A stretch of DNA of 64,000 nt from an uncultured Nitrospiraceae bacterium (GCA_963811165.1 CAWEQH010000004.1:704001-768000); one strand, 5' to 3'. Positions 23,612-29,366 are shown, counted from the stretch's first letter. Numbers and translations are program-made. Notes: a model not told the origin generated them from the sequence alone.

Positions 23612-24100
23612 ATGAGACACACAATATCGATACTCGTTGAGAATAAATTCGGCGTGCTTTCCAGGATTTCAGGCCTGTTCAGCGGAAGGGGATACAACAT
23701 AGAAAGCCTCTCCGTCGGCGAGACGATAGACCCGCAGGTCTCGGTCATGACGATCGTGACGGTCGGAGACGACTGGATCATAGAGCAGATCACGAAACAG
23801 CTTAACAAGCTCATAGACGTGATCAAGGTAGTGGACATGACCGAACTCGACCATGTCGAGCGGGAGATGGTGCTCATAAAAGTCGCCCCCCGGCAGGAGG
23901 ACAAGGCGGAGGTCCTTAGGCTTGCCGAGATCTTCAGGGGCAGGGTGATCGACTCGAGCCAAAAGACCTATACTATAGAGATCACCGGGGAAGAAAAAAA
24001 GATAGAGGCCCTCGTAGAGCTCCTTAAGCCTATGGGGATCAAGGAATTCGTAAGGACCGGCAAGATCGCGATCGCAAGGGAAGGCACCAAGAAGCCGTAA
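23612..24100 (+). CDS. ilvN: acetolactate synthase small (regulatory) subunit
   Basis: [40 protein letters not shown]. Confidence 0.97.
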
Positions 24101-24143
24101 GGTTAACGGACACGGTTATCTCCCTTTTTGACCTGTGCTAGGT

Positions 24144-24485
24144 CTACCGCGCCCTGGCCCCGGGATAGGTGCCTTTCTTTGTTACCGGGCAGCAAGGCGG
24201 GGCAGGCAATTCCTCTTTATATTCTCTGTCGATCAGGGCGATAAGGTCGGGTATCATCGGGTCCTTAAGAAAATAGCATTTCAATCTTCCGTCTACAAAA
24301 AAATCGATCAGCCCGTACCTTCTCATGAGGGAAAGATGCTGGGAAACATTCGGCTGGCGAATATCGAGGAACTCTTCAAAATCGCTTACGCACTTCACCC
24401 CTTCTCTCAGTTCTCTAAGAATCTTGATCCTTACAGGGTGGGCGATGACTTTCAGCACCTCTGTTTTCCTGTCTATCTCGGTCAT
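24144..24485 (-). CDS. ArsR/SmtB-family regulator with C-terminal CC tail
   Basis: LKVIAHPVRIKIL, CV..QPNVSQHL, tail PAPPCCPVTKKGTYPG. Confidence 0.9.
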   Translation of the reverse strand: MTEIDRKTEVLKVIAHPVRIKILRELREGVKCVSDFEEFLDIRQPNVSQHLSLMRRYGLIDFFVDGRLKCYFLKDPMIPDLIALIDREYKEELPAPPCCPVTKKGTYPGARAR

Positions 24486-24659
24486 AGTAACTCCTTAGCG
24501 CCTCTTAATAATAATTAATGAAGAGGGACGTTATCAATAACAAAGTGGTAGCTGCGTCCGTCCTTTGTGAGGATGTTGTGACGCGAACAAGGACTTTGCG
24601 GACAGCGCTCGCCAGTTTGGATGCGCTTCCCGGTTTTCCGATTTTTCGCATGCCTTTTT

Positions 24660-25850
24660 TCAGTACGGCCAGTTGCTCAGACCATGCTTCATCTTGTAGA
24701 GAAAGTACCGTTCAAACGATGCCTTGAGCCATTTCACCCAGACACCTTTTCTCGTATACGACTCTTGCCTCGGCGGAAGGGCGGGTGCCGCCTTCATAAT
24801 GGCGCCGGTATGCCCCATGTCCATGAGACAGACGACATCGATATCGGCTGCGGCAGGCGGAGACGTCCCTCTGATGTCTGAGACAATCGTCGCAGCAGCG
24901 GTCTTCGCCATCTTTACCGTCATGAAGCCGGTCTTTGGGACGCCGACAGGAACGGGTGTCGGTTCCGGAGGAGCTATGGCCATAGTCACTCCGACGGCGA
25001 AGATATTCCTGTATTTCGTGTGCCGGTAGTTTTTGTCAACGGGGATGAACCCTCTGGGATTGCCGAGCGGCGCAACAGCGGGAACACCCTTGAAAGGGGG
25101 TGCTATCATGGCGAGGTTGAAGGGTATTTTTGAGCCGTCCTTGAGCCTTATTTCTCCCGGCGCCACCTCCTGAATAGACTGGCTTGTTAATGGCTTTATG
25201 TCCCGCTCCGCAAATTCGTCCTCCATCAACCTCTTCGATTTTCCGAGACCGCCGATTCCCATATGGCCCAGGTAAGGCTCTGACGTCAGGTAGAGAATTG
25301 GTACCTCGTGGCGCATCTTCCTTCTTCGGAGTTCGGCATCCATCTCGAAGGCGAGCTCGTAGGATGGTCCGAAACAGCTCACCATCTGGGCGGAGCCGAC
25401 GACGACCGGCCCGGGCGTTTCGATAATCTTTCTCCAGCTCTGCGCGGTTCTTACCGCGTGGGCGAGCGTGAACGTGCAGTCTGTGTGCCCTTTGTCGGGT
25501 CCCAGTCCGGGTATCTCTTCGAATGAAAGATAAGGGCCGGTGGAGATGACAAGAAAGTCATAGGCCGTCTCCCCCGCCGCTGTAAGGACTTTGCCTGAGT
25601 CAGGGTCCACCTGTTTTGCCGCTTCATGGATAAAATTTATCCCCTTCGGTCTAAGTATCTCGCTGACTTTAAGGGTTATGTCTTCCGGCTTCCTCCAGCC
25701 CATGATAAGCCAGGGAAGAGAAGGCAGGAATATAAATCTGTCATCATCGCTGATGACGGTTATATCAACACCCTTGCCAAGCAGCCTTTTCAACTCTAGA
25801 GCCGCTGTCAGACCTCCAAAAGAACCTCCCAGGACAACTATCTTCGCCAT
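24660..25850 (-). CDS. sqr: sulfide:quinone oxidoreductase-family flavoprotein
   Basis: VLGGSFGG FAD motif, SCFGPSYE, PVGVPKTG, CLMDMG, amphipathic C-terminus. Confidence 0.8.
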   Translation of the reverse strand: MAKIVVLGGSFGGLTAALELKRLLGKGVDITVISDDDRFIFLPSLPWLIMGWRKPEDITLKVSEILRPKGINFIHEAAKQVDPDSGKVLTAAGETAYDFLVISTGPYLSFEEIPGLGPDKGHTDCTFTLAHAVRTAQSWRKIIETPGPVVVGSAQMVSCFGPSYELAFEMDAELRRRKMRHEVPILYLTSEPYLGHMGIGGLGKSKRLMEDEFAERDIKPLTSQSIQEVAPGEIRLKDGSKIPFNLAMIAPPFKGVPAVAPLGNPRGFIPVDKNYRHTKYRNIFAVGVTMAIAPPEPTPVPVGVPKTGFMTVKMAKTAAATIVSDIRGTSPPAAADIDVVCLMDMGHTGAIMKAAPALPPRQESYTRKGVWVKWLKASFERYFLYKMKHGLSNWPY

Positions 25851-25942
25851 GATACCTCCCTTTGCTATAGTGATGAGAAGCGAGCCGGATGCTATGTAAT
25901 TTTTTTCTCATACCCTGTCACTCGCAGCTTTCCGCGCCTCCT

Positions 25943-26230
25943 TCAAAACATTCCGATAACCTTATCGCTTTCCGTCATAAGATCAACGAGACTATCGTAA
26001 TTAATGACCTTAATGTCTCTGTACTCACCACTGCCTTTTATGCCGCGCAATTCTTTGTCATCTTCAAGAACATATGCCTTCCCGGCAAACCCCGAGTCTT
26101 CCAGATTCGGTCCCTCGATAAAATAAACCCCGTTTTGCAAAAGGACGATATCCGAGTGCATCTGACAGGAGAGTCTTACGCCCCTTTTCCCCTCCGGTGT
26201 ATCAGGACCGCTTTTTATGAAAACAATCAT
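25943..26230 (-). CDS. DsrH/TusB-like sulfur relay protein
   Basis: VLLQNGVY, YVLEDDKELRG, INYDSLVDL. Confidence 0.82.
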   Translation of the reverse strand: MIVFIKSGPDTPEGKRGVRLSCQMHSDIVLLQNGVYFIEGPNLEDSGFAGKAYVLEDDKELRGIKGSGEYRDIKVINYDSLVDLMTESDKVIGMF

Positions 26231-26264
26231 AGTGCCTCCTCAAGTTCAACTTCTTGGTACCCAA

Positions 26265-26618
26265 CTAAAAAATCATTGTGATCTCAGAATCGCTGAGCGC
26301 ATCCGCAATCTCGGAGCCATCTGAGAAAATAATCCCTTCAACCATGTCATCTGTGCGAAGATGAGCGTTTATCATAGAAACGTTATCAGCGTAAACAGAA
26401 ACGCCCATATCGATACAATCCCTGATGCCGTCTTCCGCGCTCAGATAACTGGTGCCCGATATGTCCTGACCTTTCCGGGCAACGTGCACTCCATTGTCTA
26501 ATAGGATGAGCTTCACATCCATATCTTCGGTCTTCCCGCCAAGGGCGTGCCGTATCGCCTCAGCGGCTTCCACAGAGCCATAGGGCGGCCTTCTCAAGAT
26601 GATACTGATGCCTTTCAT
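26265..26618 (-). CDS. DsrF/TusC-like (DsrE fold) sulfur relay protein
   Basis: RRPPYGS..AAEAIR, LLDNGV...KGQ. Confidence 0.82.
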   Translation of the reverse strand: MKGISIILRRPPYGSVEAAEAIRHALGGKTEDMDVKLILLDNGVHVARKGQDISGTSYLSAEDGIRDCIDMGVSVYADNVSMINAHLRTDDMVEGIIFSDGSEIADALSDSEITMIF

Positions 26619-26626
26619 CTTTCCTC

Positions 26627-26971
26627 CTATACCCCGAGATTCAAAAATATCGGTTTTGATTTGATTACGTTGAAGAGACCTTTCAGGGAACTCATCTGTC
26701 CGCCTTCTATAGAGTCTTCAGCCGCAAGACCGCGGCCCTGCATACAGCCCGTTCAGATGTCTACCTTCAGTCCTCTTCCTACAAGGTCTTCCAATGCCGC
26801 GAGAGATTTTGGGACCTGGCCTTTCACGACCGAAAAGACACCGTCTCCTGAGGCGATAAGCCGCACTTTATGGCCTTTTTTCAGAGCGGCGTCCGCAAGC
26901 ATCAGGATGGTGTGGGTGTTTTCAAAACTATACGGTGTCGTTGAAAAGAACAATGCTATCTCTTTTTGCAT
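26627..26971 (-). CDS. DsrE/TusD-like selenoprotein (in-frame TGA = Sec73, UxxC)
   Basis: TTPYSFEN, GDGV; TGA at 26755-26753 in VDI-U-TGCMQGRG; frame continues 41 codons to TAG 26627 adjacent to the next RBS; hairpin GGCCGC-GGTCTT-GCGGCT after TGA. Confidence 0.85.
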
Positions 26972-26986
26972 GCCGTCTCCCTCTCT

Positions 26987-27253
26987 TTATGGCAGATGCT
27001 CTGTTCTGCCCATCTCCTGAATGATTGCGGATTTGAGCTCCGCAATAGATACATCCTGACCCTTGAATACAATAGTGTCATTGATCGCAACCGAAGGAAA
27101 AATGTTTAATAATCTCCGGCTCCTGAAAGACATCTCAGGCTTTTTGATAATTTCTACGTCGAAGGTATATTTTCTGGATAGTTCCGTGACCACGGATTGA
27201 ATATTCGTTCACCGCTTTCCGGGCGGATCATTGAAATAAAGGGTGATGGTCAT
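26987..27253 (-). CDS. thioredoxin-like selenoprotein (in-frame TGA = Sec15, NDPPGKRU)
   Basis: RBS GAGGAG + ATG 27253; MTITLYFNDPPGKR-U-TNIQSVV...FPSVAIND; hairpin TCCGT-GGTC-ACGGA 12 nt after TGA. Confidence 0.8.
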
Positions 27254-27321
27254 TGCGGCGCGCTCCTCACTGGATGGGTAATAATCTTTAGAATTTCTAC
27301 TCTGTTCCCCTTTGAAAGCAC
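27250..27321 (-). pseudogene. 23-codon remnant of an ArsR-family gene
   Basis: RBS GAGGAG + GTG; RVEILKIITHPVR aligns with KTEVLKVIAHPVR of the ArsR at 24485. Confidence 0.65.
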
Positions 27322-27355
27322 TGTTTTTTTCTCCTCTAATTCATGCTTACATAAA

Positions 27356-27384
27356 AATATATAGATATTTGAATGTATTGTCAA
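27356..27384 (-). promoter_or_regulatory. sigma70 promoter of the selenoprotein/sulfur-relay operon with overlapping AT-rich imperfect palindrome (candidate ArsR operator)
   Basis: TTGACA-N17-TATATT on the minus strand; AATACATTCAAATATCTATATATT dyad. Confidence 0.7.
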
Positions 27385-27396
27385 GAGAGATTTTAA

Positions 27397-27641
27397 CAGG
27401 AGTTCCCCCCAGAAATAGAGTTTTGTCAGGGACAAGTCCCTAATGGATAAAGAGAAACTGAATTGCTGAAGTGGTCGAAGTTGGTTTTTGAAAAATTGGG
27501 GGAACCTTGTGCATAGAAAATGTAATGATAGCCGTCATACCGGCGAAAGTCGGTATCCAGTGACGTTGTCCTAAAGCATGCCCCGGACCCCGATCCGGGG
27601 TCGCCGGACGCCGGATCAGGTCCGGCATGACAGTCAAAGGT
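27397..27641. mobile_element. MITE/REP composite repeat, copy 1 (partial)
   Basis: Close inverted copy of 39655-39875; IR CAGGAGTTCCCCC ... GGGGGAACCTTG; GTCAT-CCGG REP-like hairpins. Confidence 0.85.
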
Positions 27642-27677
27642 GAAGGGCTTTTTTCTGAGCGGCTAAAGGAGGCCCGG

Positions 27678-29366
27678 CTATTTCGGGTAACTTCCCACTT
27701 CATATATCTGGACCGCTTGGTCCCGCGAGACGTTTTTAAGCAGGCGCCGCCATGGCTGGTCAAAGGCGCCATATCTCTTTTTTTCATTTTCTCCCCAATA
27801 GAGATGGGTCGCCCCGATACTCTTTGCCAGGGAAGGCCAGTCCGGGTCCTCGCGAAATATCCTTTCAAGTTGATTTTCCCTGGCAGCACTGTCGATACCA
27901 TGGGACCAAAGATGTCCGGGATAACCGACTGCGACCCTCGCGCCCCAGAACATGGCCGGATGGTTCGGGTCGGGCGCGACAGCCAGCACCGAGCCCGCAG
28001 GCAGATCGGTAAGGGCGGCCTTCGCGTCCCATAATTCCGCCGCCCGATAGAGTTCGACCCCGGGGCTGTTGCCGGGGAGGGAAGAGACAACGGCTATCGT
28101 ACCGGGGAAGAAAGCAATTAAGCCCGTTAAGATGGCAGACAAGGGAGGCAGGTTGATTACCCACGTCCTCCAGGCTACCCATGCGATAAGGAGATATAAC
28201 CAAATCAAGACCTTGATATTGTCCCAGTCCCATGGGGCGAGCATAACAAAAGTAAATACGATAAAGAGAAGCAAAGACGTGACCGCTATCCATCGCAGCT
28301 TGGCGTATGACTTTCTAAAGACCAGGAAGAGCCCCACTGCCGCAAAGGCCAGCCAGGGACCAAGGTTTGTAAGCCAGAAACTGAATAGGTTTTCCTCTCC
28401 GGCGGTCCATCCCGGTTGTATGTGCAAGACCTTTGCCCTTGACAGACCCCCTGCAGAAAATACTGCAAAGACAAGACCGACCGCCACCGCAGGCATCAGG
28501 ATTTCAAGGAGAAGCCGCGGTTTTCTGTAAAGAACAATGAAGATGCCGAGTGCAAGCGAAATAATAAAAAAAGTATGCAGATGAAACCACGCAAGCGACG
28601 CCCAAAGCGCCGCGCACACGGCCTTCTGTACGCGATCCATGGTCCGCTCGCCAAGGAGTGTTTCGGTTATCATCTTTATGACGTACACGCCGGCCGGTAT
28701 CGCAAAGAGAAATCCCCTCTGGGTGATCCAGAGGGAGAGGAAAAAACTTTTCCACGCAAGCGCATCCTGAAAGTCGTGGATTACACCCGTCCCGAAGATC
28801 CTCCAGTTGGCCAGCCCTCCGTTTAAGAAAAAGGCCCCGACACCCCACCATCCCATCCATCGGTGAAGCATTGATACCGCAGCGATCGTCGCAGCCAACC
28901 CGGTCAGGAAGAGATGGCTGCCGGCGGGAACACCCAGGATGTCCCATAAGGCATTATAGATATCCATTCCCAGAGGATACCTGATGAGCTCCCCGGCGAA
29001 GCCCGGATTGTCCGGCCAGAAATGCGCGCCGCCGGCGATATAGCGTATGTATTGGATATGCATCGAGAGGTCCCCGAAATTATTCGCATGAAGGGTCCTT
29101 AATCCGTTTTGGGAGTAATAAAGAAGATAGAGAAAGTGCTCCAGTCCTGCAAAAAGAATGAACCCATATAATAAGGCGGGGACTAACTTGATATCCGGAA
29201 ACAGTCCCCTGTCTTCCTTGAACCTAAGCCAGACGGCGATACCGGCGGCAGCTCCCAACGCCAGGCTTACTGCGGCAATCGCGGTGTTGAGCCTCCCTGC
29301 CGCCAAACCCAGGACCATTGCACTAAAGGTGGAAACCGCTATATGTATCAAAAAAGCAAGCGCCAT
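27678..29366 (-). CDS. polytopic membrane protein, putative GT-C glycosyltransferase-like
   Basis: More than 10 TM segments, NFGDLSMH loop motif, WDWDNIK, GYPGHLWSHG. Confidence 0.7.
   Translation of the reverse strand: MALAFLIHIAVSTFSAMVLGLAAGRLNTAIAAVSLALGAAAGIAVWLRFKEDRGLFPDIKLVPALLYGFILFAGLEHFLYLLYYSQNGLRTLHANNFGDLSMHIQYIRYIAGGAHFWPDNPGFAGELIRYPLGMDIYNALWDILGVPAGSHLFLTGLAATIAAVSMLHRWMGWWGVGAFFLNGGLANWRIFGTGVIHDFQDALAWKSFFLSLWITQRGFLFAIPAGVYVIKMITETLLGERTMDRVQKAVCAALWASLAWFHLHTFFIISLALGIFIVLYRKPRLLLEILMPAVAVGLVFAVFSAGGLSRAKVLHIQPGWTAGEENLFSFWLTNLGPWLAFAAVGLFLVFRKSYAKLRWIAVTSLLLFIVFTFVMLAPWDWDNIKVLIWLYLLIAWVAWRTWVINLPPLSAILTGLIAFFPGTIAVVSSLPGNSPGVELYRAAELWDAKAALTDLPAGSVLAVAPDPNHPAMFWGARVAVGYPGHLWSHGIDSAARENQLERIFREDPDWPSLAKSIGATHLYWGENEKKRYGAFDQPWRRLLKNVSRDQAVQIYEVGSYPK

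Follow-up and report, generated by a model that had tools for sequence, protein, structure and literature searches.

Organization of the operon

As shown in Table 1, the minus strand carries, in this order, a promoter, an arsR stub, tsoC, a dsrE-like gene, a dsrF-like gene, a dsrH-like gene, sqr and a full-length arsR. The window is the whole 64,000-nucleotide stretch of DNA analysed, from an uncultured Nitrospiraceae bacterium (GCA_963811165.1, CAWEQH010000004.1:704001-768000). The host of the operon is a Thermodesulfovibrionales (Nitrospirota) bacterium, a relative of sulfate reducers. A preliminary description had claimed a single unit running from a TTGACA-N17-TATATT promoter through seven genes, and each of these elements was found where it had been placed. 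Both UGA-containing frames reach ordinary stops (TAA and TAG) directly ahead of the ribosome-binding site and start codon of the gene that follows, as it had also said.

Contigs from independent metagenomes span 24139-27008 (X2, a single 15-kb contig) and 24061-25153 (X5). Because they bridge the genes concerned, the gene order dsrE-sqr-arsR is not an assembly artefact. The stretch was not found in any run on record as RNA.

Table 1. Features of the operon, listed in the direction of transcription; positions are counted from the first letter of the window.
Feature	Position	Strand	Evidence or remark
-35 hexamer TTGACA	27379..27384	-	TTGACA kept in aligned upstream regions of relatives
-10 hexamer TATATT	27356..27361	-	17 nt from TTGACA; inside right-arm region of the operator palindrome
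Putative ArsR operator, imperfect inverted repeat ATTCAAATAT-CTAT-ATATTTTTAT	27351..27374	-	between and over the promoter hexamers
arsR stub, 23 codons	27250..27321	-	GTG 27321 to TGA 27250
tsoC, 88-codon thioredoxin-fold selenoprotein gene (predicted), Sec15	26987..27253	-	NCBIfam NF045708 seleno_TsoC, over cut-off
UGA read as Sec15 of TsoC, codon 15	27209..27211	-	TGA/Cys column in relatives
SECIS-like hairpin UCCGU-GGUC-ACGGA	27183..27196	-	starts 12 nt past the TsoC UGA
dsrE-like selenoprotein gene (predicted), 114 codons	26627..26971	-	Pfam DsrE 3.9e-14, 53.3 bits
UGA read as Sec73 of the DsrE-like protein, motif U-T-G-C (UxxC)	26753..26755	-	TGA/Cys column
SECIS-like hairpin, G+C-rich stem, GGUCUU loop	26720..26737	-	starts 16 nt past the DsrE UGA
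dsrF-like gene, 117 aa	26265..26618	-	Pfam DsrE/DsrF 1.3e-12
dsrH-like gene, 95 aa	25943..26230	-	Pfam DsrH 38.3 bits vs cut-off 24.4
sqr, type I sulfide:quinone oxidoreductase homolog, 396 aa	24660..25850	-	structure matches
Possible separate arsR promoter TTGATA-18-TATTAT	24508..24537	-	10/12, consensus match only
arsR, full-length ArsR/SmtB repressor, 113 aa	24144..24485	-	NF033788 69.1 bits vs cut-off 55

Promoter, operator and the two arsR genes

The pair TTGACA-17-TATATT was the top sigma-70-like match within 23900-27700 (11/12), in a scan that returned 10 sites vs a shuffle mean of 3.8. We propose the inverted repeat in Table 1 as a candidate ArsR binding site. A perfect version, ATTCAAATAT-N4-ATATTTGAAT, is found in several loci, and in most of the relatives aligned the element precedes arsR at an unchanged spacing from TTGACA. 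Promoter and operator are both kept across the aligned upstream regions of relatives.

The TGA stop of the stub overlaps the ATG of tsoC (ATGA). The DNA of promoter and stub (27385-27265) aligns with the promoter and arsR 5' end of locus L088 (268-389; 74% over 126 nt) and likewise with those of locus L092. A full arsR occupies the place of the stub, upstream of the dsrE-dsrF-dsrH trio, in 42 of 56 loci of relatives. By these alignments the stub is a remnant of the ancestral first gene. The full-length ArsR at the 3' end of the operon, with cysteines at Cys31, Cys69 and a C-terminal Cys-Cys, shares 57-80% identity with the ArsR that relatives encode upstream and, judged by that identity, is its ortholog. 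Its gene may have its own promoter (Table 1); in the aligned upstream regions the operator element is absent ahead of this gene. Assignment to the BigR-type repressors was rejected (BigR model 43.7 bits vs cut-off 155), as was assignment to the SqrR-type persulfide sensors, the SqrR sensing Cys facing Arg and the ArsR cysteines being misaligned with those of SqrR.

Two in-frame UGA codons predicted to encode selenocysteine

A check for selenocysteine (Sec) machinery found all of its parts in the genome: selA (612 bits), selB (375 bits), selD (350 bits, itself with one in-frame TGA and on another contig than the operon) and tRNA-Sec (anticodon tca). Both codons have Cys as well as Sec homologs. 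At Sec73 of the DsrE-like protein, TGA occurs in 57 of 60 aligned homologs, and the other 3, all from Coprothermobacter, have Cys; the Cys three residues further on is kept in all 60, and UxxC is present in all 57 Sec forms. Across 401 Nitrospirota genomes, 52 matches at no less than 67% identity had one TGA each and aligned over residues 1-114, and about 70 further matches at 40-52% identity had TGA in all but four (hand count). A tusA-linked paralog in the same genome has CxxC aligned with this UxxC. At codon 15 of tsoC, 38 distinct Nitrospirota sequences of TsoC-like proteins were compared, and 33 have TGA and the other 5 Cys. Sequence past both TGAs is kept as protein in dozens of genomes.

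A hairpin with a GGTC loop had been claimed 3' of each UGA. Both are there, UCCGU-GGUC-ACGGA in tsoC and the stem around GGUCUU in the dsrE-like gene, and both have compensatory base changes. In the DsrE hairpin 86.6% of cells pair in 56 sequences, vs 32-45% when slid, and one pair is seen as CG (20), GC (15) and UA (9). In the TsoC hairpin 85.2% of cells pair in 16 subtype-1 sequences, vs 27-43% with the partner slid, and both sides changed in 4 of 8 pairs. Covariation scores were 0.236 vs 0.092 in shuffles for DsrE (alignment A1) and 0.306 vs 0.176 for TsoC (alignment A2), controls that only partly remove the effect of relatedness, both hairpins lying inside coding sequence. More distant DsrE homologs have other stems at the matching place after the UGA. 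The case for the hairpins rests on this comparison with relatives, because the folding energy of each 60-nt post-UGA stretch alone is ordinary (z 0.13 and 0.21) and Rfam gave no match for either. Taken together, both in-frame TGAs are best read as selenocysteine codons. None of the three outcomes that the preliminary description had named as refuting it was seen.

The preliminary description had expected gene callers to split such genes. All of the 120 best database relatives listed for the DsrE-like protein span no more than 61-63% of its read-through length, and most have exactly 72 aa. Read as a stop, the selenocysteine codon leaves the databases with a 72-aa stump for this gene. These entries probably explain the published pattern of "dsrFH but no dsrE".

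TsoC

NF045708 matched TsoC with 65.8 bits vs a curated cut-off of 45 (57.7 bits and 1 TGA when the whole genome was searched), and Pfam Thioredoxin_3 gave 22.3 bits, under its cut-off. The motif is NDPPGKRU, in which D replaces E of NEPxGxxU. Across 29 aligned TsoC sequences (alignment A6), N, P and G of the motif never vary and its last position is always U or C. The preliminary description had seen here a thioredoxin-like ORF with a TGA at a redox site. The ORF and its Sec codon stand, but the product is a single-Sec TsoC with GxxU and without any cysteine, not a CxxC-type redox protein. The gene is found in a minority of dsrE(Sec) loci, and a 259-bp deletion removes it from near-identical strains, seen in two runs whose contigs match the window at about 97% identity. 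From this distribution we regard TsoC as accessory in this operon.

DsrF, DsrH and SQR

The dsrF-like gene comes after dsrE(Sec) in every compared locus that also has a DsrH match. Assignment of the trio as canonical TusBCD/DsrEFH (type I) was rejected, its scores being under the curated equivalog cut-offs. The TusC/DsrF equivalog gave 20.2 and 26.3 bits (the latter on the DsrF-like protein) vs a cut-off of 94, the TusB/DsrH model gave 37.1 bits vs 49.2 on the DsrH-like protein, and the TusD/DsrE model had no match among the operon proteins at E 0.01. The match of the DsrE-like protein to structure 2HY5 is weak and covers only residues 5-55, with Sec73 outside. Sec73 lies inside the matched part of the Pfam DsrE model and pairs with Cys in homologs. 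From these two observations and the motif around the residue, we take Sec73 as the presumed counterpart of Cys78, which carries the persulfide in canonical DsrE (A. vinosum).

SQR aligned over residues 2-393 with the Acidithiobacillus ferrooxidans and Aquifex aeolicus SQR structures (E 1e-94). Its cysteines aligned at three sites, ...ICT..., ...SCFGP... and ...VCFADMG..., numbered Cys128/160/356. By this match the protein is a type I sulfide:quinone oxidoreductase homolog with its redox cysteines kept. The type III selenoprotein subtype (NF049943; Sec in HxxU) was rejected (101 bits vs 525, without in-frame TGA).

Gene neighbourhood in relatives

In the 56 loci with DsrH, SQR is the next gene in 33, the contig ends too near in 3 and other genes follow in 20. 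Of the 53 loci whose contigs are long enough to show SQR after the trio, 33 keep this synteny, and 42 of 56 have ArsR upstream. The operon arsR-(tsoC)-dsrE(Sec)FH-sqr is widespread in Thermodesulfovibrionales. On comparative sequence evidence the locus is a real, conserved operon encoding two predicted selenoproteins. In the 20 loci with room and without SQR beside the trio, the following gene may be SelD (L071, directly after dsrH), a NifS-like cysteine desulfurase (L075, L108) or the selenoprotein TsoY (L096, 522 bits). Such genes in the place of SQR fit a selenium role as well.

Proposed function and alternatives

The best explanation, to which we give a probability of about 0.6, is a two-selenoprotein operon for a selenium-dependent relay of sulfane sulfur from SQR via DsrE(Sec)FH, with a sulfur function that we infer. 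An ArsR-type repressor would sit on the palindrome that overlaps the promoter and be released once its cysteines are modified. SQR would oxidise sulfide with quinone, sulfane sulfur being built on the SQR cysteines and passed to Sec73 of a DsrE(Sec)-DsrF-DsrH complex. The intermediate on Sec73 might be a selenenyl-persulfide, resolved with the help of Cys76. The complex would then deliver it to a cytoplasmic sulfur acceptor such as DsrC or TusA; dsrC, dsrAB and tusA are encoded in the genome, outside the operon. TsoC, with a single selenol and no cysteine, could be an optional helper that exchanges sulfur or an Se-S bond with the complex.

A bolder proposal, which we hold to be possible but doubtful, is that the "missing dsrE" of sulfate-reducing Thermodesulfovibrionales is this selenoprotein, and that an SQR-wired DsrE(Sec)FH permits sulfide oxidation or sulfur disproportionation via an Se-S intermediate, DsrC and reversed reductive DsrAB. 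If so, organisms classed as sulfate reducers could oxidise sulfide or disproportionate sulfur in a selenium-dependent way, and the availability of selenium would decide which way sulfur is cycled by peat, wetland and aquifer communities.

The main rival, which we think unlikely, is that selenium, not sulfur, is what the operon handles. On that view DsrE(Sec)FH would bind selenium at its Sec/Cys pair, through Se-Se or Se-S bonds, and would serve SelD as a selenium donor or buffer where sulfide is plentiful in the cell. The SQR-like flavoprotein would either oxidise selenide or provide the sulfane sulfur that traps it, and TsoC would be a further selenium carrier. Besides the SelD, NifS-like and TsoY genes that take the place of SQR, this is favoured by SelD inside the 6-kb flanks of 4 of 64 loci and by the 28 genomes, of 72 with a TsoC match, in which a TsoC member and a Sec-DsrE-like gene are no more than 4 kb apart (hand count). 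The SelD-linked protein YedF contains a DsrE-like domain whose motif is CGxC (PMC5322559). The second-best NCBIfam match of SQR, far under the cut-off at 62 bits, is TIGR03169, a flavoprotein named for an N-terminal SelD fusion. Yet the SelD loci are only four and some are close kin, selD of the window's own genome is on another contig, a full YedF is encoded elsewhere in that genome (193 bits), and the commonest partner of the trio is SQR, an ordinary-looking sulfide enzyme with intact cysteines.

Slightly less probable again is that the UxxC protein is a redox-active selenenylsulfide enzyme and not a carrier. It would reduce polysulfide or persulfide from SQR or from outside to sulfide or a low-molecular thiol persulfide, keeping sulfane sulfur low (detoxification), with TsoC or thioredoxin as reductant. 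UxxC, kept in every Sec form of DsrE, is the motif class of thiol-oxidoreductase-like selenoproteins (PMC1088965), the tusA-linked paralog also has CxxC at the place of Sec73, and the cysteine-rich repressor is of a type common in stress-responsive units. Against this, the operon encodes no reductase partner and often has no TsoC, which cannot cycle alone because it has a single Sec and no Cys, and DsrF and DsrH are kept alongside DsrE, as they are in carrier complexes.

That the TGAs are true stops, leaving 14-codon and 72-codon genes followed by unrelated ORFs or decayed remnants, is contradicted by the comparative data and most improbable: a 72-aa form is in the databases and the assembly may hold frame errors elsewhere (dsrA was matched in pieces in different frames), but TGA stands at one column in 57 of 60 DsrE homologs with Cys in the other 3, conservation runs full length across it at 67-90% identity, the hairpins covary, the genome has Sec machinery and TsoC exceeds the cut-off of a curated selenoprotein model.

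Comparison with known systems

No published description of an operon arsR-(tsoC)-dsrE(Sec)FH-sqr was found. The Tso "three selenoprotein operon" and TsoC are reportedly from Haft & Tolstoy (2025, mSystems), who may already mention such neighbours; TsoC was catalogued as NCBIfam NF045708 in that year. The preliminary description did not know the combination as a characterised system, and this holds for the combination but not for the parts: since the DsrE-like UxxC family (2005) and TsoC (2025) were already catalogued, only the combination is undescribed.

TsoC is given as the NEPxGxxU-motif selenoprotein of the Tso operon in a review (PMC13188914). Like that operon, the window has a TsoC over the curated cut-off, with its NDPPGKRU motif, and an ArsR-type regulator close by, but here TsoC keeps company with DsrE(Sec)FH and SQR. 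Assignment as a Tso operon was rejected, the genome (95% complete) having no TsoA match and no TsoB over cut-off (best 77 bits vs 805, away from the operon).

Repressor-controlled sqr operons for sulfide detoxification are of the SqrR, BigR and CstR types, and of these the SqrR and BigR structures were matched against the window's ArsR. Like SqrR/BigR operons, the window has an ArsR-family repressor gene beside sqr and a sulfur-transfer protein, here with a putative operator overlapping the promoter; unlike them, its ArsR is under the BigR cut-off and has no Cys opposite the SqrR sensing Cys.

"DsrE-like protein" is a predicted selenoprotein family (PF02635, UxxC) from 2005 (Zhang, Fomenko & Gladyshev, PMC1088965), also found in Zhang et al. 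2006 (PMC1794560) and a 2026 review (PMC13188914). The window's protein shares PF02635, UxxC, Cys homologs and a post-UGA hairpin, a match made by the family's description. In the available parts of these three accounts the family is listed as a lone protein of unknown function, and DsrF/DsrH partners, SQR, ArsR and Nitrospirota are not mentioned there.

YedF resembles the DsrE-like protein in its fold, in a two-residue redox motif at a similar site and in a SelD link in some genomes, but it is a fused single protein with Cys, made of TusA-like and DsrE-like (CGxC) domains (PMC5322559).

Canonical DsrEFH/TusBCD (type I; PDB 2HY5, 2D1P) shares with the window Pfam DsrE/DsrF and DsrH and the gene order E-F-H, but the equivalog scores are far under their cut-offs, the PDB matches are only at E 0.24-0.41, and the window's trio is without adjoining dsr genes and has Sec, not Cys, at the presumed carrier position.

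In DsrEFH types I and II, Cys67/Cys78 of DsrE carries persulfide and passes it to DsrC (PMC13293266). In that source (Plum-Jensen et al. 2026), type II is a sulfur transferase that uses Cys67 and is in synteny with tusA and yeeE/yedE, and the string "selen" occurs nowhere in the paper. No tusA or yeeE lies within the window's operon; elsewhere in the genome is a tusA-linked dsrH-E-F cluster, whose Cys paralog is only 28% identical to the window's DsrE. Like type II as described there, the window's system has three small DsrE/F/H-like proteins, a presumed active residue that would sit at the DsrE cysteine position and a host whose sulfate-reduction genes are of the reductive type, Nitrospirota being among the hosts of type II as well; a role in passing SQR-made sulfane sulfur to DsrC has been put forward for each. 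In contrast to type II, the window's trio would use Sec and adjoins sqr and arsR, and is set apart by its synteny and its active residue.

Gene organization

Sequence, ORF and family searches confirmed, at the places given in the preliminary description, a minus-strand row of promoter, arsR stub, two TGA-containing ORFs, dsrF, dsrH, sqr and arsR. The genes form a single compact row at 24144-27384 of the window, listed in the table below. Over its full length, the flavoprotein matched the solved type I sulfide:quinone oxidoreductases (SQR) of Acidithiobacillus ferrooxidans and Aquifex aeolicus at E 1e-94, and at three sites its cysteines face cysteines of these enzymes. The top PDB hits of the DsrE-like protein were designed pentatricopeptide repeat proteins, matched in many weak stretches, and were rejected as composition artefacts.

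Features of the minus-strand gene row, in order of transcription
Feature	Position	Strand	Remarks
Promoter-like TTGACA-17-TATATT	27384-27356	-	Top match of the region, 11/12; scan found 10 sites vs a mean of 3.8 in shuffles
ArsR N-terminus-like ORF (stub), 23 codons	27321-27250	-	
TsoC ORF, 88 codons, TGA at codon 15	27253-26987	-	NF045708, 65.8 bits vs cut-off 45; weak thioredoxin-fold match
DsrE-family ORF, 114 codons, TGA at codon 73	26971-26627	-	Pfam 3.9e-14
DsrE/DsrF-like ORF, 117 codons	after dsrE	-	Family searches
DsrH-like ORF, 95 codons	after dsrF-like ORF	-	Family searches
Flavoprotein gene (SQR), 396 codons	after dsrH-like ORF	-	Full-length homolog of type I sulfide:quinone oxidoreductases
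Full arsR	24485-24144	-	174 nt beyond the flavoprotein gene

Selenocysteine codons

Reading the two TGAs as selenocysteine (Sec) codons called for a decoding machinery, which is present. The window's own genome, 95% complete at 3.66 Mb in 10 contigs, contains adjacent selA and selB genes, a selD gene with a single in-frame TGA, and a tRNA whose anticodon is tca. We searched 401 Nitrospirota genomes for DsrE-like proteins with stop codons read through. There were 52 matches at 67-99% identity, all spanning residues 1-114 with exactly one TGA each, and the protein is thus conserved past the TGA. About 70 further matches were found at 40-52% identity, with a TGA in all but four (counted from the result table). 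When 59 homologs from named public contigs were aligned with the window, TGA occupied one column in 57 sequences and Cys stood there in 3 (Coprothermobacter), and the Cys three residues further on was kept in all. In the tusA-linked DsrE paralog of the same genome, a CxxC motif is aligned with the UxxC.

Like DsrE, TsoC has homologs with Sec or Cys at the TGA position. The family had matches in 72 of the 401 genomes, 22 of them over the cut-off and most with one TGA. The motif N-[DE]-P-x-G-x-x-[U/C] was occupied by U in 33 and by C in 5 of 38 distinct sequences, and in an alignment of 29 sequences the N, P, G and U/C, one Lys and one Pro were invariant. The comparison of homologs thus showed both UGAs to be predicted Sec codons, and the reading of the TGAs as true stops is contradicted by the same comparative data.

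Hairpins downstream of the UGA codons

A hairpin had been proposed after each TGA. Both are present, with GGUC-type loops, starting at +12 nt in tsoC and at +16 nt in dsrE. Folded as single sequences, the two 60-nt stretches were not more stable than shuffles (z 0.13 and 0.21); an Rfam search of 23900-27700 returned no match at E up to 1. Covariation was scored in 56 DsrE sequences and in 16 sequences of TsoC subtype 1. Pairing cells amounted to 86.6% for DsrE and 85.2% for TsoC, compared with 32-45% and 27-43%, respectively, when the partner was slid. The covariation score was 0.236 for DsrE (0.092 in shuffles) and 0.306 for TsoC subtype 1 (0.176 in shuffles), with 0 of 500 shuffles reaching the observed value in either set; such scores are inflated by relatedness, and the hairpins sit within coding sequence. 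Pairs altered on both sides numbered 3 of 6 in DsrE and 4 of 8 in TsoC subtype 1. One DsrE stem pair, which was CG in 20, GC in 15, UA in 9 and unpaired in 12 sequences, joins the middle bases of codons 79 and 84, so that the coupled changes Gly/Ala, Thr/Gly and Leu/Asp-Glu track base pairing. DsrE homologs at 35-50% identity have other stems in the same place, and the covarying stem of the second TsoC subtype is likewise a different one. Support for the putative hairpins is good but not absolute, and it comes from relatives rather than from the single sequence.

Promoter, putative operator and ArsR

Most of the relatives' upstream regions that were aligned have an inverted repeat 2-3 nt past TTGACA. 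The -10 box falls within its right arm, and in several loci the repeat is a perfect ATTCAAATAT-N4-ATATTTGAAT. The repeat is kept in the window at 27374-27351. Repeats that overlap the promoter in this way are typical of operons in which an ArsR/SmtB repressor blocks RNA polymerase, and ArsR may bind this one as a putative operator. The cysteines of the window ArsR include Cys31, at the classical alpha-3 'CVC' position, Cys69 and a Cys-Cys pair at the C-terminus; the sensing cysteine of SqrR is not among them. The protein scored below the cut-offs of the BigR and TsoR models.

In relatives, arsR is the first gene of the operon; in the window, only the arsR promoter and first codons remain upstream. 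The stretch 27385-27265 aligns with the promoter and arsR 5' end of two relatives' loci (L088 and L092). The full arsR ortholog lies after sqr, is 57-80% identical to the relatives' upstream ArsR, and has ahead of it a weaker promoter-like site without the operator. The stub was rejected as a recent DNA-level copy of the 5' end of this downstream gene, since short-word BLAST gave only 8-nt matches; its likeness to arsR was visible only at the protein level and via relatives. Upstream of the promoter, at 27440-27680, a G+C-rich palindrome (ccggacctgatccgg...ccggatcggggtccgggg) has the appearance of a small repeat element.

Gene context in relatives and metagenome contigs

By their record titles, the relatives are Thermodesulfovibrionales (Candidatus Sulfobium, Dissulfurispiraceae, Thermodesulfovibrio and other Nitrospirota), with distant Sec forms of DsrE in Desulfotignum and Desulfobacteraceae. 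DsrH was matched in 56 loci, all of which share the core dsrE(Sec)-dsrF-dsrH. ArsR was upstream of this trio in 42 of them, and the trio was followed by SQR in 33 and by other genes in 20, the contig ending too early in 3. Among the other genes are selD(Sec) directly after dsrH (locus L071), NifS-like cysteine desulfurases (L075 and L108), and the selenoprotein TsoY (522 bits) with a DsrE2-like protein (L096). SelD was found inside the 6-kb flanks of 4 of 64 loci. With SelD, NifS, TsoY and TsoC as neighbours, the module might serve selenium trafficking, a role for which the DsrE-like CGxC domain of YedF (PMC5322559) also speaks. We consider this role unlikely, because SQR is the commonest partner of the trio, and selD and a full YedF are encoded elsewhere in the window's own genome.

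What lies between arsR and dsrE varies: nothing, a TsoC of one subtype or the other, or a small Cys-type DsrE-like protein with CGTC. The last, of 106-110 residues, replaces TsoC in L083 (492-809), L050 and L053, matches the YedF DsrE-like domain faintly (19 bits), and in L053 has a TGA where others have Arg. Of the 72 genomes with TsoC-family matches, 28 had such a match no more than 4 kb away from a Sec-DsrE-like one (hand count). A congener (G370) has the usual order arsR-dsrE(Sec)-F-H-sqr without TsoC. In a complete genome from the same taxonomic order (G013), arsR, dsrE(TGA), dsrF and dsrH stand in a row and an sqr-like stretch comes next. In another genome (L153, G200 C2:113000-131000), arsR-tsoC-dsrE(Sec)FH-sqr is followed by a second ArsR and a 140-residue DsrE2-like protein. 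Next come a 1070-aa transporter-like, a 481-aa pyridine-nucleotide-disulfide oxidoreductase-like and an ArsR-like ORF, each with an in-frame TGA, and then a second tsoC.

Independent metagenome contigs confirmed the gene order of the window. In contigs of two metagenome runs, X2 (depth 19.3) and X4 (depth 4.1), about 97% identical to the window, 27008 is joined to 27268; this 259-bp deletion (27009-27267) removes tsoC except its last 22 nt. The gene is kept in contigs of X1 and X5. The deletion is a natural presence/absence polymorphism, and TsoC is therefore dispensable in nature. In X2, 222 other letters take the place of the 39 nt that separate ilvN from arsR (24100-24138). The similarity of X1 and X5 to the window breaks off directly upstream of the -35 hexamer (loose ends at 27379), and the conserved unit therefore ends at the promoter. 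None of the sequencing runs on record that contain the stretch was an RNA run, and two RNA runs from the same study as one DNA holder had next to none of its words.

Annotation of the Sec-containing DsrE

As had been expected, gene callers split dsrE. The best 120 of 267 database relatives of the read-through protein all cover only 61-63% of it, most being exactly 72 aa long, under names such as 'DsrE family protein' or, in Candidatus Sulfobium mesophilum, 'putative DsrE subunit of DsrEFH'. No NCBIfam model flags the window DsrE as a selenoprotein. Both proteins are members of known selenoprotein families, since a DsrE-like UxxC family has been known since 2005 (PMC1088965) and TsoC is catalogued in a 2026 review (PMC13188914) and in NCBIfam. 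The preliminary description did not know the combination as a characterised system, and we likewise found no description of an operon of a Sec-type DsrEFH-like trio and SQR under ArsR in the literature searched; supplementary tables may list the genes, and Haft & Tolstoy 2025 (mSystems) may cover part. The operon occurs widely in Thermodesulfovibrionales, and databases systematically carry its dsrE in truncated form.

A 2024 survey reported that most Thermodesulfovibrionia 'possess dsrFH, but no dsrE' (PMC11033732), a pattern that cutting of dsrE at the Sec codon would explain. The presence of dsrEFH is used as a marker separating sulfur oxidisers from sulfate reducers (PMC10591310, PMC13293266). 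For DsrEFH type II, a 2026 survey counted only genomes with all three genes and scored a conserved cysteine (PMC13293266), so Sec forms of this kind are likely to be overlooked or misjudged.

Proposed function and comparison with Cys-based DsrEFH

The gene set was observed directly, and the operon is conserved. In the proposed relay, SQR would convert sulfide to sulfane sulfur, which Sec73 of DsrE, within a DsrEFH-like complex, would accept as an Se-S-S(H) species with Cys76 nearby (the two form the UxxC, U-T-G-C). The complex would then hand the sulfur on to DsrC or TusA, which are encoded, as is dsrAB, elsewhere in the genome. TsoC has a single Sec and no cysteine and could act only via mixed Se-S bonds with a partner; we therefore take it as an optional helper. 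In a close variant of this relay, the UxxC would work as a persulfide or polysulfide reductase, which we regard as somewhat less probable still than selenium trafficking. The selenium-dependent sulfide handling originally suggested is supported. The comparisons show the Sec codons, the gene set, the conserved operon and the operator-like repeat, and the sulfur relay itself is what we infer. With Sec in the presumed place of the sulfur-carrying residue of a DsrE-type transferase, encoded beside SQR, selenium-assisted sulfane-sulfur transfer becomes directly testable.

Other sulfur genes occur in the same genome. At C4:471036-473043 (L014, L025 and L181), a full YedF (TusA-like plus DsrE-like, 193 bits) adjoins rhodanese-domain genes; the tRNA-Cys beside it is above the Rfam tRNA-Sec gathering threshold, yet has the anticodon gca. 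At C8:231910-234154 (L172-L177), dsrA and dsrB were matched in pieces in different reading frames, with open frames of 409, 146, 157 and 409 aa and of 282 and 184 aa, the pieces being either assembly frameshift errors or broken genes. A second cluster at C1:387.4-389.0 kb (L160) contains dsrH-like, dsrE-like (C75, C77, C80) and dsrF-like genes and then tusA. The DsrE encoded there shares 28% identity with the Sec form, and the cluster probably represents the Cys-based DsrEFH type II described in PMC13293266.

A route similar to the one proposed here has been put forward, and partly shown in vitro, for cable bacteria and their Cys-based DsrEFH type II (PMC13293266). The string 'selen' does not occur in the text of that paper. 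DsrEFH type II, as described there, clusters with tusA and yeeE, whereas the trio of the window lies with sqr.
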